DNA of 49,024 nt, taken from an uncultured Candidatus Saccharibacteria bacterium (lineage in GTDB: Bacteria; Patescibacteriota; Minisyncoccia; Phycocordibacterales; UBA12445). Position numbers and translations under genes: made by a program. The DNA lies in assembly GCA_964531375.1 (NCBI GenBank), contig CAZHDO010000001.1:262861-311884 (forward strand), in the 5' to 3' direction. Shown here in pieces: positions 3,499 through 35,274 of this stretch. Positions within the stretch are counted from its first letter, which is position 1, and the number at the start of each line of letters is the position of its first letter. Below the pieces are notes generated by a model. That model ran no database searches and was not told the origin of the DNA. It saw only the letters and a list, made by a program, of their open reading frames with translations.

Positions 3499-4329
3499 TT
3501 ATTTTTTTAAATTTTCTATAATATCTTTATGTTTCTGGTATTCTTCCCAAGATTTTTTTAAGAAGTCTTCAAAAGATATTTTTCCGTTTTCGTGTTCTTT
3601 ATAGAGTTCTCCAAAATATTCAGAAAGAATTTTTTCGCCAATTTTTATATCTTGCCACTCTTTGTAAACTTTATGTTCTCTGTTATTTGTAGACCCTTGA
3701 ATTGTTTTATTATTATTTGCAATAGAAGAAGCCAATATCTCACTTAATCTCCATTCAGAATGTGGAGAATCAAATTTTTTCTTATCGCTATCAGGAAAAA
3801 CTTCTAACCATTTTTTGAAATAGAGAAAATGGGTTATTTCGTGGATACTAACACTCTTTATTGTATTGTCGTCAAATTTATAAAAAAGACTGAATGACCA
3901 TTTGTCTAAAAATCTCGGACAGATGGGATTAATGGAAACATAAGCCTTTATTTCTTTAATATTTTCTGGATATTTTGTTTCAAAGTCTTTTGATAAATTA
4001 GCTAAATTTTTCTCCGCAATTTCATCCCATTTCTCTTGGAAATTATCTCTAGCTTTTTCTATGTTATCTTTGTTTTCTATTAAATATTTTTTAAAATATT
4101 GTTCACATTTATTATAAAAAATATTTTTATCTGTAATTCCACCAACCATCTCTTTTAGTTTTGGATGGGCATCGTAAACTCTATAATTCCAATTAAGTAT
4201 TTTTGTGTCGTCTGGGTAACAAAAATTGAAAATTAAATCTACTTCCATTTTTGTTGGCGCTAATTCAAATTTCACCTTAGGTATATTTATTTTTTCTATT
4301 TTTGAATTTAAGTTATCGAGATTTTTCAT
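3499..4329 (-). CDS. Hypothetical protein, putative zincin metallopeptidase
   Basis: HEITH motif plus a later LSEILA glutamate. ATG at 4329 was preferred over the TTG at 4332. Confidence 0.55.
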   Translation of the reverse strand: MKNLDNLNSKIEKINIPKVKFELAPTKMEVDLIFNFCYPDDTKILNWNYRVYDAHPKLKEMVGGITDKNIFYNKCEQYFKKYLIENKDNIEKARDNFQEKWDEIAEKNLANLSKDFETKYPENIKEIKAYVSINPICPRFLDKWSFSLFYKFDDNTIKSVSIHEITHFLYFKKWLEVFPDSDKKKFDSPHSEWRLSEILASSIANNNKTIQGSTNNREHKVYKEWQDIKIGEKILSEYFGELYKEHENGKISFEDFLKKSWEEYQKHKDIIENLKK

Positions 4330-4338
4330 CAAGATTTT

Positions 4339-4409
4339 TTAAAAATCAGCATTACCGGGCGTTCTTGGGAATGTAATTACATCCCTAATATTATCCGAAT
4401 GCCACTTAA
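4339..4409 (-). repeat. Direct repeat copy 2 of the asnS 3' end
   Basis: Aligns to 5177..5245 with 8 substitutions and one 2-nt indel (manual alignment). Confidence 0.9.
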
Positions 4410-5160
4410 GAGCTATATTGTGAATAAAATATTCGACATCCTCAAACTTTATCCCTAAGGGTTTTAGAAAAGGTTTAATCTTTTTTAGCATGAATGCGTG
4501 AGCGTCCCTTTCATCTTTAAGTTTAGCTGCCAGCCATTCTTCAGTATTTTTGTTTTGTTGCTCTTTATTTTTCCTATATTCCGGATCGTCGTGAGATATA
4601 AAATGGCCTATTTCATGCAGAATTGTAAGTAGATTTCCTAGTCTAGACATATCACCATCTAAAGTTACTATTTTGTATTTACCATCTTGGGCAAAACCCA
4701 AAAAAGATGGCTCATCTACCGAAATATGTTTCTCTGGATATTTTTTTAATAGATACGATTTTATAAAAGAATCTGGAGAAAAAAACACTTCAAAATTTTC
4801 AGGATATAATTTTTTCAATTCCAATAAACTATCTCCAGTCTGGAGAGTTAAATTTTCTAATTTTCTAAAATGTCTCGGTTCGTAAAGAATATTTTGCAAC
4901 AATTCTTTATCTTTTCTATTTAACTGTTCGCAATCTTTTGAGTTTTTAAACGAGGAATACTTATTAAGCGAACTATAAGAAAAAGAAAGTTTAAAGTTTT
5001 CGTTACTAATCTCTACGGTATCATCATCTTTGTATTCTATTTTCCCTAAAGATGTACTTAGCCTACTGAGAACTTCTTTCGTTTTCTCATTCGATAAAAC
5101 ATCTGATGGCTTCTCTAACTTACTTCGCAAATAGTTAATAGGATTATTTTCAACTGACAT
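4339..5160 (-). CDS. Hypothetical HExxH protein whose C-terminus is a copy of the AsnRS C-terminus
   Basis: LHEIGH and ERDAH motifs; ends [18 protein letters not shown] versus Asn[20 protein letters not shown]. Confidence 0.7.
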   Translation of the reverse strand: MSVENNPINYLRSKLEKPSDVLSNEKTKEVLSRLSTSLGKIEYKDDDTVEISNENFKLSFSYSSLNKYSSFKNSKDCEQLNRKDKELLQNILYEPRHFRKLENLTLQTGDSLLELKKLYPENFEVFFSPDSFIKSYLLKKYPEKHISVDEPSFLGFAQDGKYKIVTLDGDMSRLGNLLTILHEIGHFISHDDPEYRKNKEQQNKNTEEWLAAKLKDERDAHAFMLKKIKPFLKPLGIKFEDVEYFIHNIALKWHSDNIRDVITFPRTPGNADF

Positions 5161-5245: not shown

Positions 5246-6571
5246 ATACATTATCATTCTTTCGAAGCCGAGACCGAAGCCGGCGTGTTTTGAACCTCCG
5301 TATTTTCTAAGGTCTAGATACCATGAATAATCCTCTTCTTTTAGGCCCATTTCTTTTATTCTTGAGATAAGTTTGTCATATCTTTCTTCACGTTGAGAAC
5401 CTCCAATAATTTCACCGATTCCTGGTACAAGTAGGTCCATGGCGGCAACAGTTTTTCCGTCATCGTTTTGCCTCATGTAAAAAGCTTTGAAATCTTTTGG
5501 ATAGTCCATAACGAACACTGGGCTCTTGAATATAACTTCTGTTAAATATTTTTCATGTTCAGTTTGTAATTCCTTACCCCAGCCAACAGGATATTCAAAT
5601 TTACTTTTTTCTTCGACTGATAAATCTTCGAGTAATTTTACAGCTTCTGTGTAGGTTATTCTTTTAAATTCGGAGTTTAAAACATTATTTAATCTTTCTA
5701 AAACGTTTGTGTCGATAAATTTATTAAAGAAATTCATTTCTTCTGGTGCATTGTCGAGAACATATTTGATTATGTATTTGATCATTTCTTCTGCCAACTC
5801 CGAATCTTCTTTTAGTCCAGCAAAAGCAATCTCAGGCTCGATCATCCAGAATTCTGCGGCATGTCTTTTTGTATTTGAATTTTCTGCGCGAAAAGTCGGT
5901 CCGAATGTATATATTTTATTAAACGCAAGCGCAAACGTCTCTCCTTCGAGTTGGCCACTTACAGTAAGGTTTGTTTCTTTTGCAAAAAAATCTTTTGAAT
6001 AATCTATTTTTCCATCTTTATCTTTAATCGGATTTAATAAATTTTGAGTCGTTACATGGAACATTTCACCTGCACCCTCAGCATCACTACCTGTAATTAT
6101 CGGTGTGTGTACATACACAAATCCTTTTTCATTAAAGAATTTATGAATAGCAAAAGCCGCAAGTGATCTTACCCTAAATACCGCCGAAAAAGTATTTGAC
6201 CTAGGTCTTAGGTGAGCAATCGTTCTCAGGTATTCAAATGTGTGTCGTTTCTTTTGAAGCGGGAAACTTTCGTCTGAGTCCGCAAGTATTTCTATTTTTT
6301 CTGCTTTTAACTCAAAAGCCTGTTCTTTGGCTGGAGATTTGACTATTTCACCTTCAATAGAGATTGCTGAACCAATTCTTATTTTTTCAATTTCTTTAAA
6401 ATTAGAAAGCTTGTCATCAAAAACCACCTGTAGGTTTTTAAAGAAAGTCCCATCGTTTAATTCAATAAACCCAAAAGTTCCAGAAGACCTAGCTGTTCTA
6501 ACCCAGCCATTTACTATCATTTTCTGCCCTATTAATTTCTCTCCTTCCTTAAAAATATTTTTTATTTCCAT
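5177..6571 (-). CDS. asnS: Asparagine--tRNA ligase
   Basis: OB-fold N-terminus (GWVRTAR, FIELNDG), [49 protein letters not shown]. Confidence 0.97.
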
Positions 6572-31731: not shown

Positions 31732-31761
31732 GTGCCGGGGGCATGTCCTCGGCACTTTTTT
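31732..31761 (+). terminator. Intrinsic terminator between the convergent ORF 31384 and dnaX
   Basis: GTGCCGGGG-gcatgt-CCTCGGCAC followed by T6. Confidence 0.75.
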
Positions 31762-32791
31762 ATTGTCCCAAAAGCCTTATTAGTGCCAATTCGATCGGAA
31801 GCTCTGGGATGTTGGCATGACCAACGTCGTTATTGGCAACAAGGAGTTCTTTAAGCGACTGAGGTATGATTGCTATATTTACATGTGACTTAAATGTTTT
31901 AAAGATAGTGGCTTCATCGTCGGACATTTCTGATAATATTTCTTTTTCTAGTTCCGGTGCAAATTTTAGCAACATGACCAGGCGAATATCCCGAAGTAGC
32001 ATTTTTAAGAAAACTTTCATGTCAATATTTGCTGTTGATATTTTTCTAACCAAGACAATGCTTTGATCTAGATTTTTATCGAGAATTGCTTTGATTAAGG
32101 AATGAATTATCTCCCCTCTTGGCGAGCCAGTAATTGATTCAACGTCTTCTATTTTTATTTTTTTTGAATTGGCTATATTTGAAACTTGTTCAAGAATTCC
32201 GATAGTATCCCTAAACGAACCATCTCCTAATAGTGCGATAAGTTCTGCTGAGCTTTTGTCTATTTCAAATCCTTCGGATTTTGCTATTTTTTCAATTGAA
32301 TTTTTTAAGATTTCATTTGTTGGTTTTTTGAACTTGAAAGACTGACACCTTGAAATAACTGTTTCTGGTAATTTGTGTAATTCGGTTGTTGCTAATATAA
32401 ATACAACATGTTTTGGTGGTTCTTCCAGTGTCTTTAGAAAGGCGTTAAAAGCACTTTTTGAAAGCATGTGTACTTCATCAATAATATAAACTTTTCTTTC
32501 CGATTCAAAGGGCAGAGTTCTTGCACCATCTGTAATTTCTCGTATATCTTCAACACTTGTATTTGATGCCGCATCTAGCTCATAAATATCCTTTTCCGAA
32601 GTCCCTATTTCCCTCGCAAAAATTCTTGCGATACTTGTCTTCCCTGTCCCTCTTGAGCCAACAAAAAGATAAGCATGAAATATTTTTTTATCTCTTATTG
32701 CACCAGAAAGTATAGAAACAATCTCGTCTTGTCCTAAAACATCTTTGAAAGTTTGTGGTCTGTATTTACGATAAAATGCTAAATGGGACAT
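31760..32791 (-). CDS. dnaX: DNA polymerase III subunit gamma/tau (short form)
   Basis: YRKYRPQTF, GSRGTGKTS, ELDAASN, IIDEVHMLS, LKTLEEPP, SRCQ. Confidence 0.95.
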   Translation of the reverse strand: MSHLAFYRKYRPQTFKDVLGQDEIVSILSGAIRDKKIFHAYLFVGSRGTGKTSIARIFAREIGTSEKDIYELDAASNTSVEDIREITDGARTLPFESERKVYIIDEVHMLSKSAFNAFLKTLEEPPKHVVFILATTELHKLPETVISRCQSFKFKKPTNEILKNSIEKIAKSEGFEIDKSSAELIALLGDGSFRDTIGILEQVSNIANSKKIKIEDVESITGSPRGEIIHSLIKAILDKNLDQSIVLVRKISTANIDMKVFLKMLLRDIRLVMLLKFAPELEKEILSEMSDDEATIFKTFKSHVNIAIIPQSLKELLVANNDVGHANIPELPIELALIRLLGQ

Positions 32792-32836
32792 AAGATAGTT
32801 ATAAGGTTAAAATGTTATAAAGTTATAATGTTTAAA
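32788..32836 (+). repeat. Left inverted arm made of 8-bp tandem repeats
   Basis: ACATAAGATA-GTTATAAG-GTTAAAAT-GTTATAAA-GTTATAAT-GTTTAAA on the plus strand. Confidence 0.85.
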
Positions 32837-33181
32837 CTACAAAACTTTGATGAATCCGGAAATTAATTTTGAAATATCAATTGATAATTTGGTTAAGTCC
32901 TCGTTTTCCTTTGCAGAAATGTATTTTAATTCTAAAGCCAAACCAAGCATAGATCTTACTTCTCCGCACGAACCTTTTGCAATATAAAGGAAATTTACGA
33001 ATTCTTTATTTGTTTGTCTTTCAAATCCTTCTGCAATATTATTCATCACAGATATCGAAGCTCTCTGAATTTGATCTCGAAAACTATAATCCCGACAATC
33101 TTTTAAAATTTTATATATAGCAATTACTAGTTCTTTAGATTTTTGCCACGCAATGATGTCCTTAAATTTTTCTATCTTCAT
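32837..33181 (-). CDS. Four-helix-bundle protein (23S rRNA IVP / Avd-like fold)
   Basis: FKDIIAWQKSKEL, RDQIQRASISVMNNIAEGF, FLYIAKGSCGEVRS. Confidence 0.92.
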   Translation of the reverse strand: MKIEKFKDIIAWQKSKELVIAIYKILKDCRDYSFRDQIQRASISVMNNIAEGFERQTNKEFVNFLYIAKGSCGEVRSMLGLALELKYISAKENEDLTKLSIDISKLISGFIKVL

Positions 33182-33228
33182 TTAAACTTTACAACATTAT
33201 AACATGATAACTTTAAACTATCTTATAT
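33181..33228 (-). repeat. Right inverted arm made of 8-bp tandem repeats
   Basis: Minus strand ATATAAGATA-GTTTAAA-GTTATCAT-GTTATAAT-GTTGTAAA-GTTTAAA; aligns to the left arm. Confidence 0.85.
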
Positions 33229-35274
33229 CCGTTCAGGTGCTTCAGCGTGGCAGAGTTTTAGGCCATTCGATAAAGTTACCGCCACTGCATGGGTGATGAA
33301 TAAACGGTGGGGGTATTCTAATTTTCCCGCAAGGAGTACATCTGCGTTTTCGTAATAGCTGTTGTATTCGTTTGCGAGATTTAGTAGATATTCGGCTAGT
33401 GTGGCTGGATTATCTGTTTCGCTTGCTTTTAGAATCACTTTTGGTAAGTCGGCAATTTTTTTCAGAAGATTAATTTCTGTTGGTTCAAGTATGGAAAGGT
33501 CTAATTTGTAAATATCTAAATCAGTAATTTTCTTATCTGATTTTCTTAAGATGCTTTTTGCGCGAGCTATTGAGTACATAACATATGCACCACCTGATTC
33601 TTCGAATGCTTGAATATTTTTTATTAACTCTTTGTGAAATGGAATTGGAAATCTTTTGTCTTGTTTTATGTCGTTGAAAGCAATAGAGCCGACGGCCAGC
33701 TTCTTTGCGTTGTCGTTTTTTTCTTCATCACTAAAATCTATTTTCTCATCATACTTATTTCTAAAATATTTTATTGATTCTTCTATGAGCGAAATAACAT
33801 TCTGGGCGCCTTCTCTGCTCGAGAGTTTCTGTTTTGTATCGGCATCTATATAAAAACCATGAGAAAGGTGTTTTAGGTCTATATTTGCTCCATTGCTTAA
33901 ATTCATGGTCGTTGCAGCCTCAAAAATGTGCTTAAAATGCTCTGACTGCTCCTGACCCACTACATAGAGCAACCTTGATGGAGAAAATGATTCTATACGG
34001 TGTTTTATGCTTACAAGGTCTCTCGTAGCGTATATTGTGGCACCATCCGCCCTCATAATTACCAAGCGAGCGCTAGAAGGAAGCATTACCACATAAGCGC
34101 CGATATCGTTATTAATTTCTTCCAAAAGCTTTTCTAATACTGGAAGCTCTATCGTGTTGGATTCAAATTTAAGTTGTGCTTTTTTGGTTTCAATATCAGC
34201 AAGTTCTTTTGTAAAAATGACAACTTCCCCTGTTTTCAGTTTTTCTTTTACAAAGTCAACGCCTTTTTTACCGTAAAAACTTTCTCCAAGAAGATAGTCG
34301 TGTTTAATATTTAAAAGTTCATAAAACTTATTGAACTCTACAAGGCTCCACCCTCTCATCAGTTGCCAAAGTTCATATTCTTCTTTTTCTCCATTTTCTA
34401 GGTTTTGAAAACGCTCAATTGATTTGTTCTTAAATTCTGAATATTTATTTTTATAGCTTTCAATATCTGTAAAATCACCAACGAGGTTTGTGAGTTCGAT
34501 TTTGTTGTCTTCGAGAAGTTTTTCGAAACTATGTGCCTCGTTGGACTTTTCGGCTTTTCTTACAAGTTGATAGACATAATCAAGAATACTATTATCTGAG
34601 TCTAGTTTTGGAATAACATTCTTCGTTTTAAGTTTTGAGTATGCTTCGATAAGAGCGCCCATACCACCCCAATCGTTTAGGTAGTTTAAACGATGTACTG
34701 TGAATCCAGTAGATTCATATATTTCAGCCAAAACCTCTCCAATGATCGTTGAATGTATGTGACCGGTATGAAGGTGTTTGGCTATGTTTGGGCTTGAATA
34801 ATCAAGAACAATTTTCTTGCTTTTATTTACATCAGAAAAACCGTAATCGCCACTCAGTTTTAGTGTGTCATTAATTATTTCTTTAAATATTTGATGACCA
34901 AGAGTAATGTTTAGATAAATCCCCTTTGCTTCAAGTTTAATAATTTCCTTATTAAATAAAGTTGATTTTTCAATATTAGCGATTATTTGTGGGATTGTTT
35001 CTTTTGTGTATTTAGGAATACCATAACCTTTCATTAATGATGGTATTTTAATTGCGATGTCAGCATTGAACTGTTTTCGGTCAATAAATTCAATTTGAAT
35101 GTCGTCAATATTCTCGATATCGTTGTTTGCGTTAACTATCGATTTTCTAAGTTTTTCTATTGAATAATCACAAAAAGAAACATAACCAGAGGATTCTCTT
35201 TTTTGGCTTACAATGTTTATTTTATTTAATATTTCCGATTGTATTTCGGAATTTTTTTTATCTAAAAGATTCAT
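33223..35274 (-). CDS. argS: Arginine--tRNA ligase
   Basis: DYSSPNIAKHLHTGH, LNYLNDWG, RADGATIYATRDL, YVVGQEQSEHF, KLSSREG, YVMYSIAR, APERI. Confidence 0.95.
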   Translation of the reverse strand: MNLLDKKNSEIQSEILNKINIVSQKRESSGYVSFCDYSIEKLRKSIVNANNDIENIDDIQIEFIDRKQFNADIAIKIPSLMKGYGIPKYTKETIPQIIANIEKSTLFNKEIIKLEAKGIYLNITLGHQIFKEIINDTLKLSGDYGFSDVNKSKKIVLDYSSPNIAKHLHTGHIHSTIIGEVLAEIYESTGFTVHRLNYLNDWGGMGALIEAYSKLKTKNVIPKLDSDNSILDYVYQLVRKAEKSNEAHSFEKLLEDNKIELTNLVGDFTDIESYKNKYSEFKNKSIERFQNLENGEKEEYELWQLMRGWSLVEFNKFYELLNIKHDYLLGESFYGKKGVDFVKEKLKTGEVVIFTKELADIETKKAQLKFESNTIELPVLEKLLEEINNDIGAYVVMLPSSARLVIMRADGATIYATRDLVSIKHRIESFSPSRLLYVVGQEQSEHFKHIFEAATTMNLSNGANIDLKHLSHGFYIDADTKQKLSSREGAQNVISLIEESIKYFRNKYDEKIDFSDEEKNDNAKKLAVGSIAFNDIKQDKRFPIPFHKELIKNIQAFEESGGAYVMYSIARAKSILRKSDKKITDLDIYKLDLSILEPTEINLLKKIADLPKVILKASETDNPATLAEYLLNLANEYNSYYENADVLLAGKLEYPHRLFITHAVAVTLSNGLKLCHAEAPERI

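Follow-up and report, generated by a model that had tools for sequence, protein, structure and literature searches.

Introduction

Intervening sequences (IVSs) that carry an open reading frame (ORF) are found in the 23S rRNA of Coxiella burnetii and also in that of Leptospira, Brucella, Xanthomonas and Haemophilus. The foldback type of cassette which they represent is known in print only in this ribosomal form. The present analysis concerns an element of similar build in a 49,024-nt stretch of DNA, hereafter the window (G000:C1:262861-311884), from a member of the Patescibacteria (Paceibacteria-type), namely a four-helix-bundle (4HB) gene of the 23S_rRNA_IVP / TIGR02436 family located between the protein-coding genes argS and dnaX and enclosed by two arrays of short tandem repeats in opposite orientation. 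The genome holding the window, denoted G000, comprises 859 kb with 35% G+C and is 93.6% complete.

The IVS of C. burnetii is 428 nt long, resides in helix 45 of the 23S rRNA and forms a 28-bp terminal stem with the S23p ORF in its loop (PMC4990558). Three to four tandem heptamers (GACAGAT) stand directly before this ORF, and RNase III cuts the IVS out (PMC4990558). The element has been described as selfish and perhaps left over from transposition, and the IVSs of Leptospira show horizontal transfer (PMC4990558). A second related system are the dispersed heptamer arrays described by Rehm et al. in 2015, with the unit GGGAATC in Xanthomonas and GGGGAYT in Nostoc, which are intergenic and mostly located between co-oriented genes (PMC4692102). 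Four units are preferred and the arrays often form convergent inverted pairs (70-75 per Xanthomonas genome); they are transcribed, their function is unknown, and they were explained by G-quadruplexes with 4HB genes left unmentioned (PMC4692102). Proteins of the S23p family (PF05635) furthermore share the fold of Avd, and PF05635 is the Pfam family most often encountered beside the reverse transcriptases of diversity-generating retroelements (DGRs) (PMC10053308). Avd of the Bordetella phage BPP-1 (PDB code 4DWL) has a homologous four-helix-bundle fold and assembles into a pentameric ring which functions together with nucleic acid (PMC10053308). Outside rRNA, no paper was found in the literature that connects the gene family with tandem-repeat arms on its flanks.

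Architecture of the argS-dnaX cassette

The minus strand carries, in this order, argS, a 41-nt spacer, the 4HB gene (114 aa), a 45-nt spacer and dnaX, and the identities of all three genes are supported by Pfam and NCBIfam profiles. The features are as follows.

31760..32791, minus strand: dnaX (DNA polymerase III gamma/tau, short form), downstream host gene; TIGR02397, 340 bits, and Pfam
32786..32800, no strand assigned: outer end of the inverted repeat, pairing with 33211-33230 (20 nt, 85%)
32792..32836, minus strand: downstream arm, 3' of the 4HB gene and 5' of dnaX, 45 nt; Tandem Repeats Finder (TRF) period 8, 4.4 copies
32837..33181, minus strand: 4HB gene, 114 aa, 23S_rRNA_IVP / TIGR02436 family, sole gene in the loop of the cassette
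33182..33222, minus strand: upstream arm, 5' of the 4HB gene, 41 nt; repeat scan and TRF
33223..35274, minus strand: argS (arginine-tRNA ligase), upstream co-oriented host gene; ORF with PF00750 and PF05746, TIGR00456 283 bits, above cut-off

With a probability of about 70%, the 431-bp stretch composed of upstream arm, 4HB gene and downstream arm is one inserted foldback cassette of the type of the ORF-bearing 23S rRNA IVSs, placed here between protein-coding genes.

Read on the minus strand, the upstream arm follows the argS TAA stop codon, which it adjoins, as GATAGTT TAAAGTT ATCATGTT ATAATGTT GTAAAGTT TAA, with the ATG of the 4HB gene coming next. It consists of four units with the core A[AT]GT and one degenerate unit, and includes TGTTATAAT; the orthologous upstream arms in two species of the same genus (G001 and G003, see below) read TAGTTATAAAGTTGAAAGTTATAATGTTATAAAGTT. 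The downstream arm runs TTTAAAC ATTATAAC TTTATAAC ATTTTAAC CTTATAAC TATCTT up to the ATG of dnaX and is a reverse-complement array of the upstream arm, so that both spacers are made up of tandem GTTATAAn units, running in opposite directions. The two arms agree exactly in their outer 10-mer, TAAGATAGTT. At its outer end the inverted repeat reaches into the first two codons of dnaX, and the partner segment 33211-33230 takes in the final codons of argS together with its stop. A first-pass annotation, made from the letters of the window, had described two 46-nt spacer strings that align in inverted orientation with 6 mismatches and 1 gap, each built of about five GTTwwAAn-like units and filling its spacer exactly. 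The strings and their alignment are reproduced exactly, repeat families and the TRF period of 8 give 4-5 units per arm, and the arms do occupy both spacers fully from stop codon to start codon.

The same annotation had raised the concern that shuffled A/T-rich spacers might often align equally well. None of 5000 dinucleotide-preserving shuffles of both spacers attains the inverted score of 23 (mean 8.2, z = 9.4), while the spacer pair scores 8.5 in direct orientation. In a genome-wide scan for inverted repeats in the 70 nt on each side of 899 self-called ORFs, the 4HB gene ranks first in G000 with a score of 29.5 (median 7.5; 99th percentile 13.5). Chance and base composition are thereby ruled out as source of the match. 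The part GTTATAAC of the repeat unit is its own reverse complement, a property that matters for an alternative in which the arrays would be ordinary host signals, either promoter or leader modules or hairpins of terminators, the 4HB gene a member of the operon, and the inverted symmetry a by-product of the near-palindromic unit. The low score in direct orientation (11.5 against 29.5 inverted in the genome-wide scan) rules out the palindromic unit as full explanation of the match.

Compared with the rRNA IVSs, the cassette in the window shows terminal inverted repeats that can form a long stem, with a PF05635 family protein, the family of S23p, encoded in the loop, a size of about 430 nt, and an ORF in the sense orientation within the presumed host transcript. 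Short tandem repeats stand right before the start of the ORF as in Coxiella, the window having 4-5 units of 8 nt that end at the ATG. It differs in being located between argS and dnaX instead of in helix 25 or 45, and in arms that are A/T-rich arrays of 8-nt units exactly filling the spacers. The cassette thus is not a 23S IVS but is built like one, having every structural feature except the location.

Filled and empty insertion sites

For a comparison of the insertion site, dnaX was searched in 60 relatives and the DNA upstream of it inspected, with ORFs in the relatives taken from simple calls of our own. G000 to G003 belong to one genus, and G004, G005, G008, G009 and G010 to other genera of the same family. 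In G001, the dnaX of which is 78% identical, the order argS-4HB-dnaX with arms is found again. G003 likewise has an armed 4HB gene before dnaX, with argS further upstream behind one extra gene on the opposite strand. This gene of 193 aa (G003:C7:98000-104000, locus positions 4215-4796) encodes a signal-peptide-like N-terminus and lies between argS and the upstream arm, where the extra DNA amounts to about 1.2 kb altogether; it is a second insertion at the argS-dnaX junction.

The first-pass annotation had suggested looking for empty junctions in close relatives. One exists within the genus, as in G002 argS and dnaX are separated by 21 nt only (TAAGATAAATTATCAATTATTTATATG) that hold no array, and in G004, G005, G008, G009 and G010 the spacers measure 1-35 nt, again free of arrays. 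In genomes lacking the cassette dnaX thus directly follows argS. None of the relatives inspected has the gene at argS-dnaX without arms. Since the junctions without the gene also lack both arms, the arms arrived together with the gene, which speaks against their being host promoter, leader or terminator modules at this site. The cassette is a single inserted unit whose gene and arms are jointly present or absent.

It has also occupied a second site within the genus. G002 carries a 4HB gene of 82% identity with GTTATAAn arms in the spacer between rpmE and prfA, and the company of arms of identical type at a second locus is likewise not expected of host signals. The same spacer holds a gene-less GTTATAAn array in G000 (C5:10688-10741), collinear with the upstream arm of G002 plus one last unit of the downstream arm. 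In G003 it is occupied by a different 4HB gene of 122 aa with arms of the TAATTTC type, and in G001 by a gene-less, degenerate stretch of the TAATT type. No arrays are present between rpmE and prfA in six genomes of the same family. This spacer is a hot spot where two species hold different cassettes. The four genus copies group together as a single clade (SH-aLRT 88) in a 75-protein tree; its topology, (G002,(G000,(G003,G001))), agrees with the order of the dnaX and prfA identities.

From these relationships, the most economical history would comprise one acquisition of the cassette by the ancestor of the genus, at rpmE-prfA, a subsequent copying to argS-dnaX in the lineage of G000, G001 and G003, and a later loss of the ORF from the old copy at rpmE-prfA. 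The view of a transposase-free cassette, put forward in the first-pass annotation, is supported by the filled and empty sites as well as by the same cassette at a second junction in G002; there is no transposase within the window.

The four-helix-bundle protein

The 4HB protein matches PF05635 with 118.2 bits (cut-off 33.8; E = 2e-34) along the whole of the model (1-106 of 106) and TIGR02436 (four helix bundle protein) with 114.8 bits (cut-off 24), and NF008912 is also matched. Its closest relatives of solved structure, as found by phmmer, are XCC0516 (PDB code 2GSC, E = 2.9e-12) and 2RLD (E = 1.2e-8). XCC0516, the closest of them, is a pentamer of five chains.

The pairwise dN values among the four genus copies are 0.09-0.17 at saturated dS; with dS not computable in five of the six pairs, the sixth yields a dN/dS of 0.06. 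Judged from these substitution patterns the gene is under strong purifying selection, unlike the ORF of the Coxiella IVS, which is decaying. All four species nonetheless retain arms built from one common unit despite the saturated dS of the gene. As unconstrained spacer DNA would be unrecognisable at such a synonymous distance, the sequence comparison shows the arms, too, to be under constraint.

The shared fold and the frequent occurrence of PF05635 beside DGR reverse transcriptases, cited above, raise the question whether the gene encodes an Avd-type accessory protein of a DGR, with repeats related to the template and variable repeats of such systems. However, no match to the reverse transcriptase family PF00078 is found anywhere in the 93.6%-complete G000, template or variable repeats are absent from this genome as well, the neighbours are argS and dnaX, and the gene stands alone between inverted arrays of 8-nt tandem units, which are no template/variable pair. 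The DGR context is ruled out by the missing reverse transcriptase and refuted at this locus unless such an enzyme is encoded in the unassembled 6% of the genome, so that its probability is practically negligible.

Predicted RNA fold and expression signals

Folded as RNA, the 465-nt stretch pairs its arms in both the minimum free energy and the centroid structure, with a predicted energy of -106.6 kcal/mol (z = -4.2) that none of 100 shuffles reaches. No described RNA family lies on the arms, as judged from Rfam matches at E <= 1. The first-pass annotation had moreover proposed that pairing continues outwards into both flanking genes (GGAUAUAAGAUAGUU with AACUAUCUUAUGUCC) and buries the AUG of dnaX. 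The outer pairing is present in both predicted structures of G000 and not conserved in G001, G002 and G003. Because it is not seen in these three orthologous or paralogous cassettes of the genus, burial of the dnaX AUG is specific to G000 and probably incidental. RNase III, the enzyme that excises rRNA IVSs, is encoded in G000 (TIGR02191, 246 bits; G000:C1:187066-187725).

With regard to expression, boxes of the type TATAAT/TATAAC had been proposed just before both start codons. TATAAC is indeed found 6 nt before the ATG of dnaX, and the box at 6 nt before the 4HB start codon is TGTAAA/TATAAA, reading TGTAAA in the upstream arm of the window. A scan for sigma-70 promoters detected no -35/-10 pair at 16-18 nt spacing on the coding (minus) strand inside the arms. 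A full sigma-70 promoter within the arms is thus ruled out on this strand, and the arms contain -10-like boxes only (TGTTATAAT, TGTAAA and TATAAC) at leaderless spacing. The missing -35/-10 pair weighs against arms that supply a promoter and, more generally, against their being ordinary host promoter modules, while the -10-like boxes 6 nt before the 4HB and dnaX starts would suit such modules. So would the enrichment of TATAAT 5-9 nt upstream of start codons across G000 (47 of the 206 occurrences within 100 nt). AGGAG, too, is enriched 5-9 nt before G000 starts, which suggests that the genome has a mix of leaderless and Shine-Dalgarno-led genes.

Gene-less arrays

Arrays of the GTTATAAn type are specific to the genus, with 16-34 pattern matches in G000-G003 as compared to 0-2 in other genera and in reversed-pattern controls. 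Their usual gene-less form is a closely set pair, [GTTATnAn]x3-5, a loop of 10-60 nt and [nTTATAAC]x2-4, the second array stopping 5-10 nt before the next start codon. In G000 gene-less GTTATAAn/TTATAAC arrays are located directly before rpmA, rplK, dnaJ, prfA and the transfer-messenger RNA (tmRNA) gene, and it is the TTATAAC orientation, as in the downstream arm, that abuts the starts of these five genes. In G001 and G003 the genes preceded by gene-less arrays are rpiB, dnaG and the tmRNA gene, some of the sites being orthologous. The conserved position of arrays before genes of this kind, with no 4HB gene beside them, speaks for regarding the arrays as host signals. All in all we consider that explanation improbable, given the empty junctions, the second armed locus and the inverted scores described above, and given that the same layout recurs in distant phyla whose promoters differ (see below).

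Two further array families accompany other 4HB genes of the genus. GTATTTA arrays give 42 matches in G000 against 0-5 elsewhere, and a 4HB gene with GTATTTA arms (G000:C2:55423-55797) is present in G000 only. TAATTCN arrays are confined to the genus and most frequent in G001 (61) and G002 (23), both of which have 4HB genes bearing such arms. As judged from these counts, the abundance of an array family tends to follow, imperfectly, the presence of a 4HB gene with the same arms. Most other 4HB subfamilies of the genus and family have repeat arms as well. The gene-less GTTATAAn, GTATTTA and TAATTCN arrays look like the same phenomenon as the heptamer arrays of Rehm et al. The units of the genus differ from those heptamers in being A/T-rich, devoid of G tracts and unable to form quadruplexes, and yet display the same four-unit mode and inverted pairing; such arrays in general can therefore not be explained by G-quadruplexes.

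Several other repeats were encountered in G000. Several genes in a VirB4-like (type IV secretion-like) cluster at G000:C2:54000-64000 are enclosed by GTATTTA/TAAATAC heptamer arrays, as are yidC and rnpA beside dnaA-dnaN. Inverted arrays on the flanks are thus not restricted to 4HB genes in G000, where five to six further ORFs have scores above 18. The strongest inverted repeat of G000 (C2:5501-5578 / 5926-6003) has 78-nt arms and a 347-nt loop, is G+C-rich and lies among tRNA genes, with a third partial copy at C2:4484-4517. Dispersed palindromes TTTGGAAACGWCGTTTCCAAA / GAAACGTCGTTTC, unrelated to the A/T-rich arrays, occur at C6:32465-34289, C4:39211-41213, C2:46623-47202, C3:8075-8210 and at the ends of C11 and C13. 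Runs of N at G000:C6:5576-5675 and C8:1569-1670 yield false inverted repeats unless they are excluded.

The architecture across phyla

An alignment of the genus proteins served to collect 80 loci from named genomes of Patescibacteria (many classes), Bacteroidota, Ignavibacteriota, Bdellovibrionota, Pseudomonadota, Spirochaetota and others. They have 54-81% protein identity and are the best matches of one subfamily, so the armed fraction in the whole 4HB family is certainly lower than in this sample. For 74 of the 80 loci flanks of 100 nt could be scored, with 494 neighbouring ORFs as controls. The median inverted-repeat score is 16.75 as opposed to 7.5 for the neighbours (Mann-Whitney P = 7e-33). 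That homologues should be flanked by inverted arrays of short repeats, as the first-pass annotation had proposed, holds for all four genus copies and for 47 of the 74 loci, which score at least 15, as do only 9 of the 494 neighbouring ORFs.

The arms share a core. Upstream flanks contain 4.12 AAGT and 0.59 ACTT per locus, downstream flanks 3.77 ACTT and 0.69 AAGT, with about 0.55 each in the controls. In 44/74 loci, versus 4/475 controls, AAGT upstream and ACTT downstream each occur three times or more. The cores are spaced by 7, 8 or 9 nt, the unit consensus is (T)TATAAAGT, and the counts of units per arm show a sharp maximum at four (28/74 upstream and 23/74 downstream arms). Of 71 loci, 67 (94%) have a co-oriented upstream neighbour against a background of 219/305 (P = 1.6e-6); the orientation of the downstream neighbour is at background level. 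Between the gene and its neighbours the gaps have medians of about 60 nt, so that the arms fill the spacers here as well. The AAGT/ACTT layout is also found in Bacteroidota, Ignavibacteriota, Pseudomonadota and cyanobacterial plasmids, the promoters of which differ; this is the distribution referred to above as being at odds with host signals.

A second 4HB subfamily, that of G002:C5, was sampled at 30 loci of the phylum. It has inverted arrays too, with 12 of the 30 loci scoring at least 15, and its core is AATT (2.31 versus 0.54 AAGT per locus at an identity of at least 44%), whereas the subfamily of the window has 3.46 AAGT versus 0.46 AATT per locus.

Phages as carriers are rejected, since a search by tblastn among 50,697 phage records gave no match. 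Matches on plasmids are confined to cyanobacteria and Riemerella, and both plasmid copies inspected carry arms. On plasmid pANA02 of Anabaena sp. 90 (NC_019429.1:44265-44633) the 4HB gene has inverted GGTGACA heptamer arms and is located between cas6 and cas4 in a type I-D CRISPR-Cas operon; a copy on a Nostoc plasmid has arms of the GGGAAAA type. With respect to rRNA, Rfam on 10 sampled loci including that of the window gave only tRNAs, a riboswitch and weak chance matches, and a search for conserved 23S motifs in all 80 loci returned only a 9-mer, in two loci. None of the related loci thus resembles rRNA, and a location within it is rejected for them.

The distribution also bears on the possibility that the cassette is a non-autonomous DNA transposon resembling a miniature inverted-repeat transposable element (MITE), the arms being terminal inverted repeats for a transposase encoded elsewhere and the 4HB gene a passenger. 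Like MITEs and the repetitive extragenic palindromic (REP) and bacterial interspersed mosaic elements (BIMEs), the cassettes are short, have inverted repeats, lie between genes and occur as lineage-specific families with gene-less short derivatives. Filled and empty sites exist, TA abuts both arm ends in G000, G001 and G003 as in elements of the IS630/mariner type, and the scatter of 4HB proteins of 55-80% identity over phyla suggests horizontal transfer. The arms, however, are register-free tandem arrays of a 7-9-nt unit in place of unique termini, and the TA is part of the palindrome, so that no target duplication is demonstrable from it. The full-length form carries a 4HB gene instead of a transposase or a REP-associated tyrosine transposase; the passenger always belongs to this one gene family, and the repeat core follows the 4HB subfamily. 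Copies within a genome are not near-identical as is the rule for MITEs, for G000 has only seven GTTATAAn arrays, which share the unit and no further sequence. Finally, the co-orientation bias of the upstream neighbour is not expected of cut-and-paste transposons. A MITE-like nature of the cassette is hence unlikely.

Proposed mechanism

If the 431-bp stretch is indeed a foldback cassette of the IVS type, its persistence between argS and dnaX might be understood by analogy to the rRNA IVSs. The cassette would be transcribed within the host operon by read-through from argS via the 4HB gene to dnaX, and on this transcript the arms are predicted to zip into an A/U-rich duplex of about 50 bp. RNase III, whose excision activity has been shown for the rRNA IVSs, may then cut the arm duplex of the window cassette as well, and by separating the cassette from its neighbours such a cut would render an insertion between essential genes tolerable. 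The -10-like boxes of the arms, at their leaderless spacing, could assist in maintaining expression of the 4HB gene and dnaX. The repeat units in turn are putative recognition sites of a pentameric 4HB protein. Binding of the protein to the repeats would explain the core common to several phyla, its dependence on the subfamily, the preference for four units and the register-free pairing. The 4HB protein may in addition take part in the spread of the arrays. We infer these steps with falling confidence, from transcription in the operon and the RNase III cut through the -10 boxes and protein binding to the protein-aided spread of arrays. As to their role, the arms may be protein binding sites, recombination ends, portable promoters or an IVS-like stem in the mRNA.

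Several observations weigh against reading the stretch as an inserted foldback cassette or against parts of the mechanism. Shuffling the order of units inside the arms equals the observed score in 1131 of 5000 trials (23%), which means that the arms are two opposite arrays of one unit and no register-specific mirror image. In agreement with this, shifting one arm by one unit costs a median of 4.5 score points in 47 loci, and 41 of 47 other loci are register-free. Mirror symmetry in a specific register is therefore not supported, and the inverted match, being register-free, provides no compensatory changes as evidence for one particular RNA stem. The minimum-energy fold of the G001 cassette leaves the arms unpaired. 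No clear target-site duplication can be shown, the flanking TA belonging to the palindrome and the empty site of G002 being too diverged to reveal one, and no recombinase, transposase or movement intermediate linked to the cassette was seen. The arrays may have a role of their own, as gene-less ones precede housekeeping genes at orthologous sites. TAATTCN arrays occur with 12-13 matches in G000 and G003, which have no exactly matching 4HB gene, and one 4HB subfamily of the genus (153-156 aa) has no arms. Lastly, the agreement between core and subfamily could reflect linked descent instead of recognition.

A wider proposal that goes beyond the single locus is possible but doubtful. In it, 4HB pentamers in general would be sequence-specific partners of their flanking arrays, with about one unit of 7-9 nt per subunit and a core set by the subfamily. 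Gene and arrays together would form a transposase-free mobile cassette found throughout bacteria that settles in transcribed junctions, namely operon spacers and rRNA helices, and seeds gene-less heptamer and octamer arrays such as GGGAATC of Xanthomonas and the cyanobacterial heptamers.

Implications

The S23p / 23S_rRNA_IVP family has been an orphan since rRNA IVSs were described around 1990, and the short bacterial tandem repeats of heptamer and octamer size likewise lack an explanation, their function having been open for decades. The locus described here provides a dated case, within one genus, of gene and arms acting as a single unit, comprising an empty and a filled site, a second occupied site, a gene-less remnant at an apparently vacated site and a junction with two cassettes. 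For annotation it is relevant that spacers made of arrays separate the essential genes argS, dnaX, rpmE and prfA and likely affect their expression. If the link between the 4HB family and the arrays holds, rRNA IVSs would be one particular form of a general selfish cassette, and an origin would be available for a large class of intergenic repeats. The AAGT/ACTT core across phyla, together with the case from one genus, makes both puzzles, that of the S23p family and that of the short repeats, experimentally approachable.

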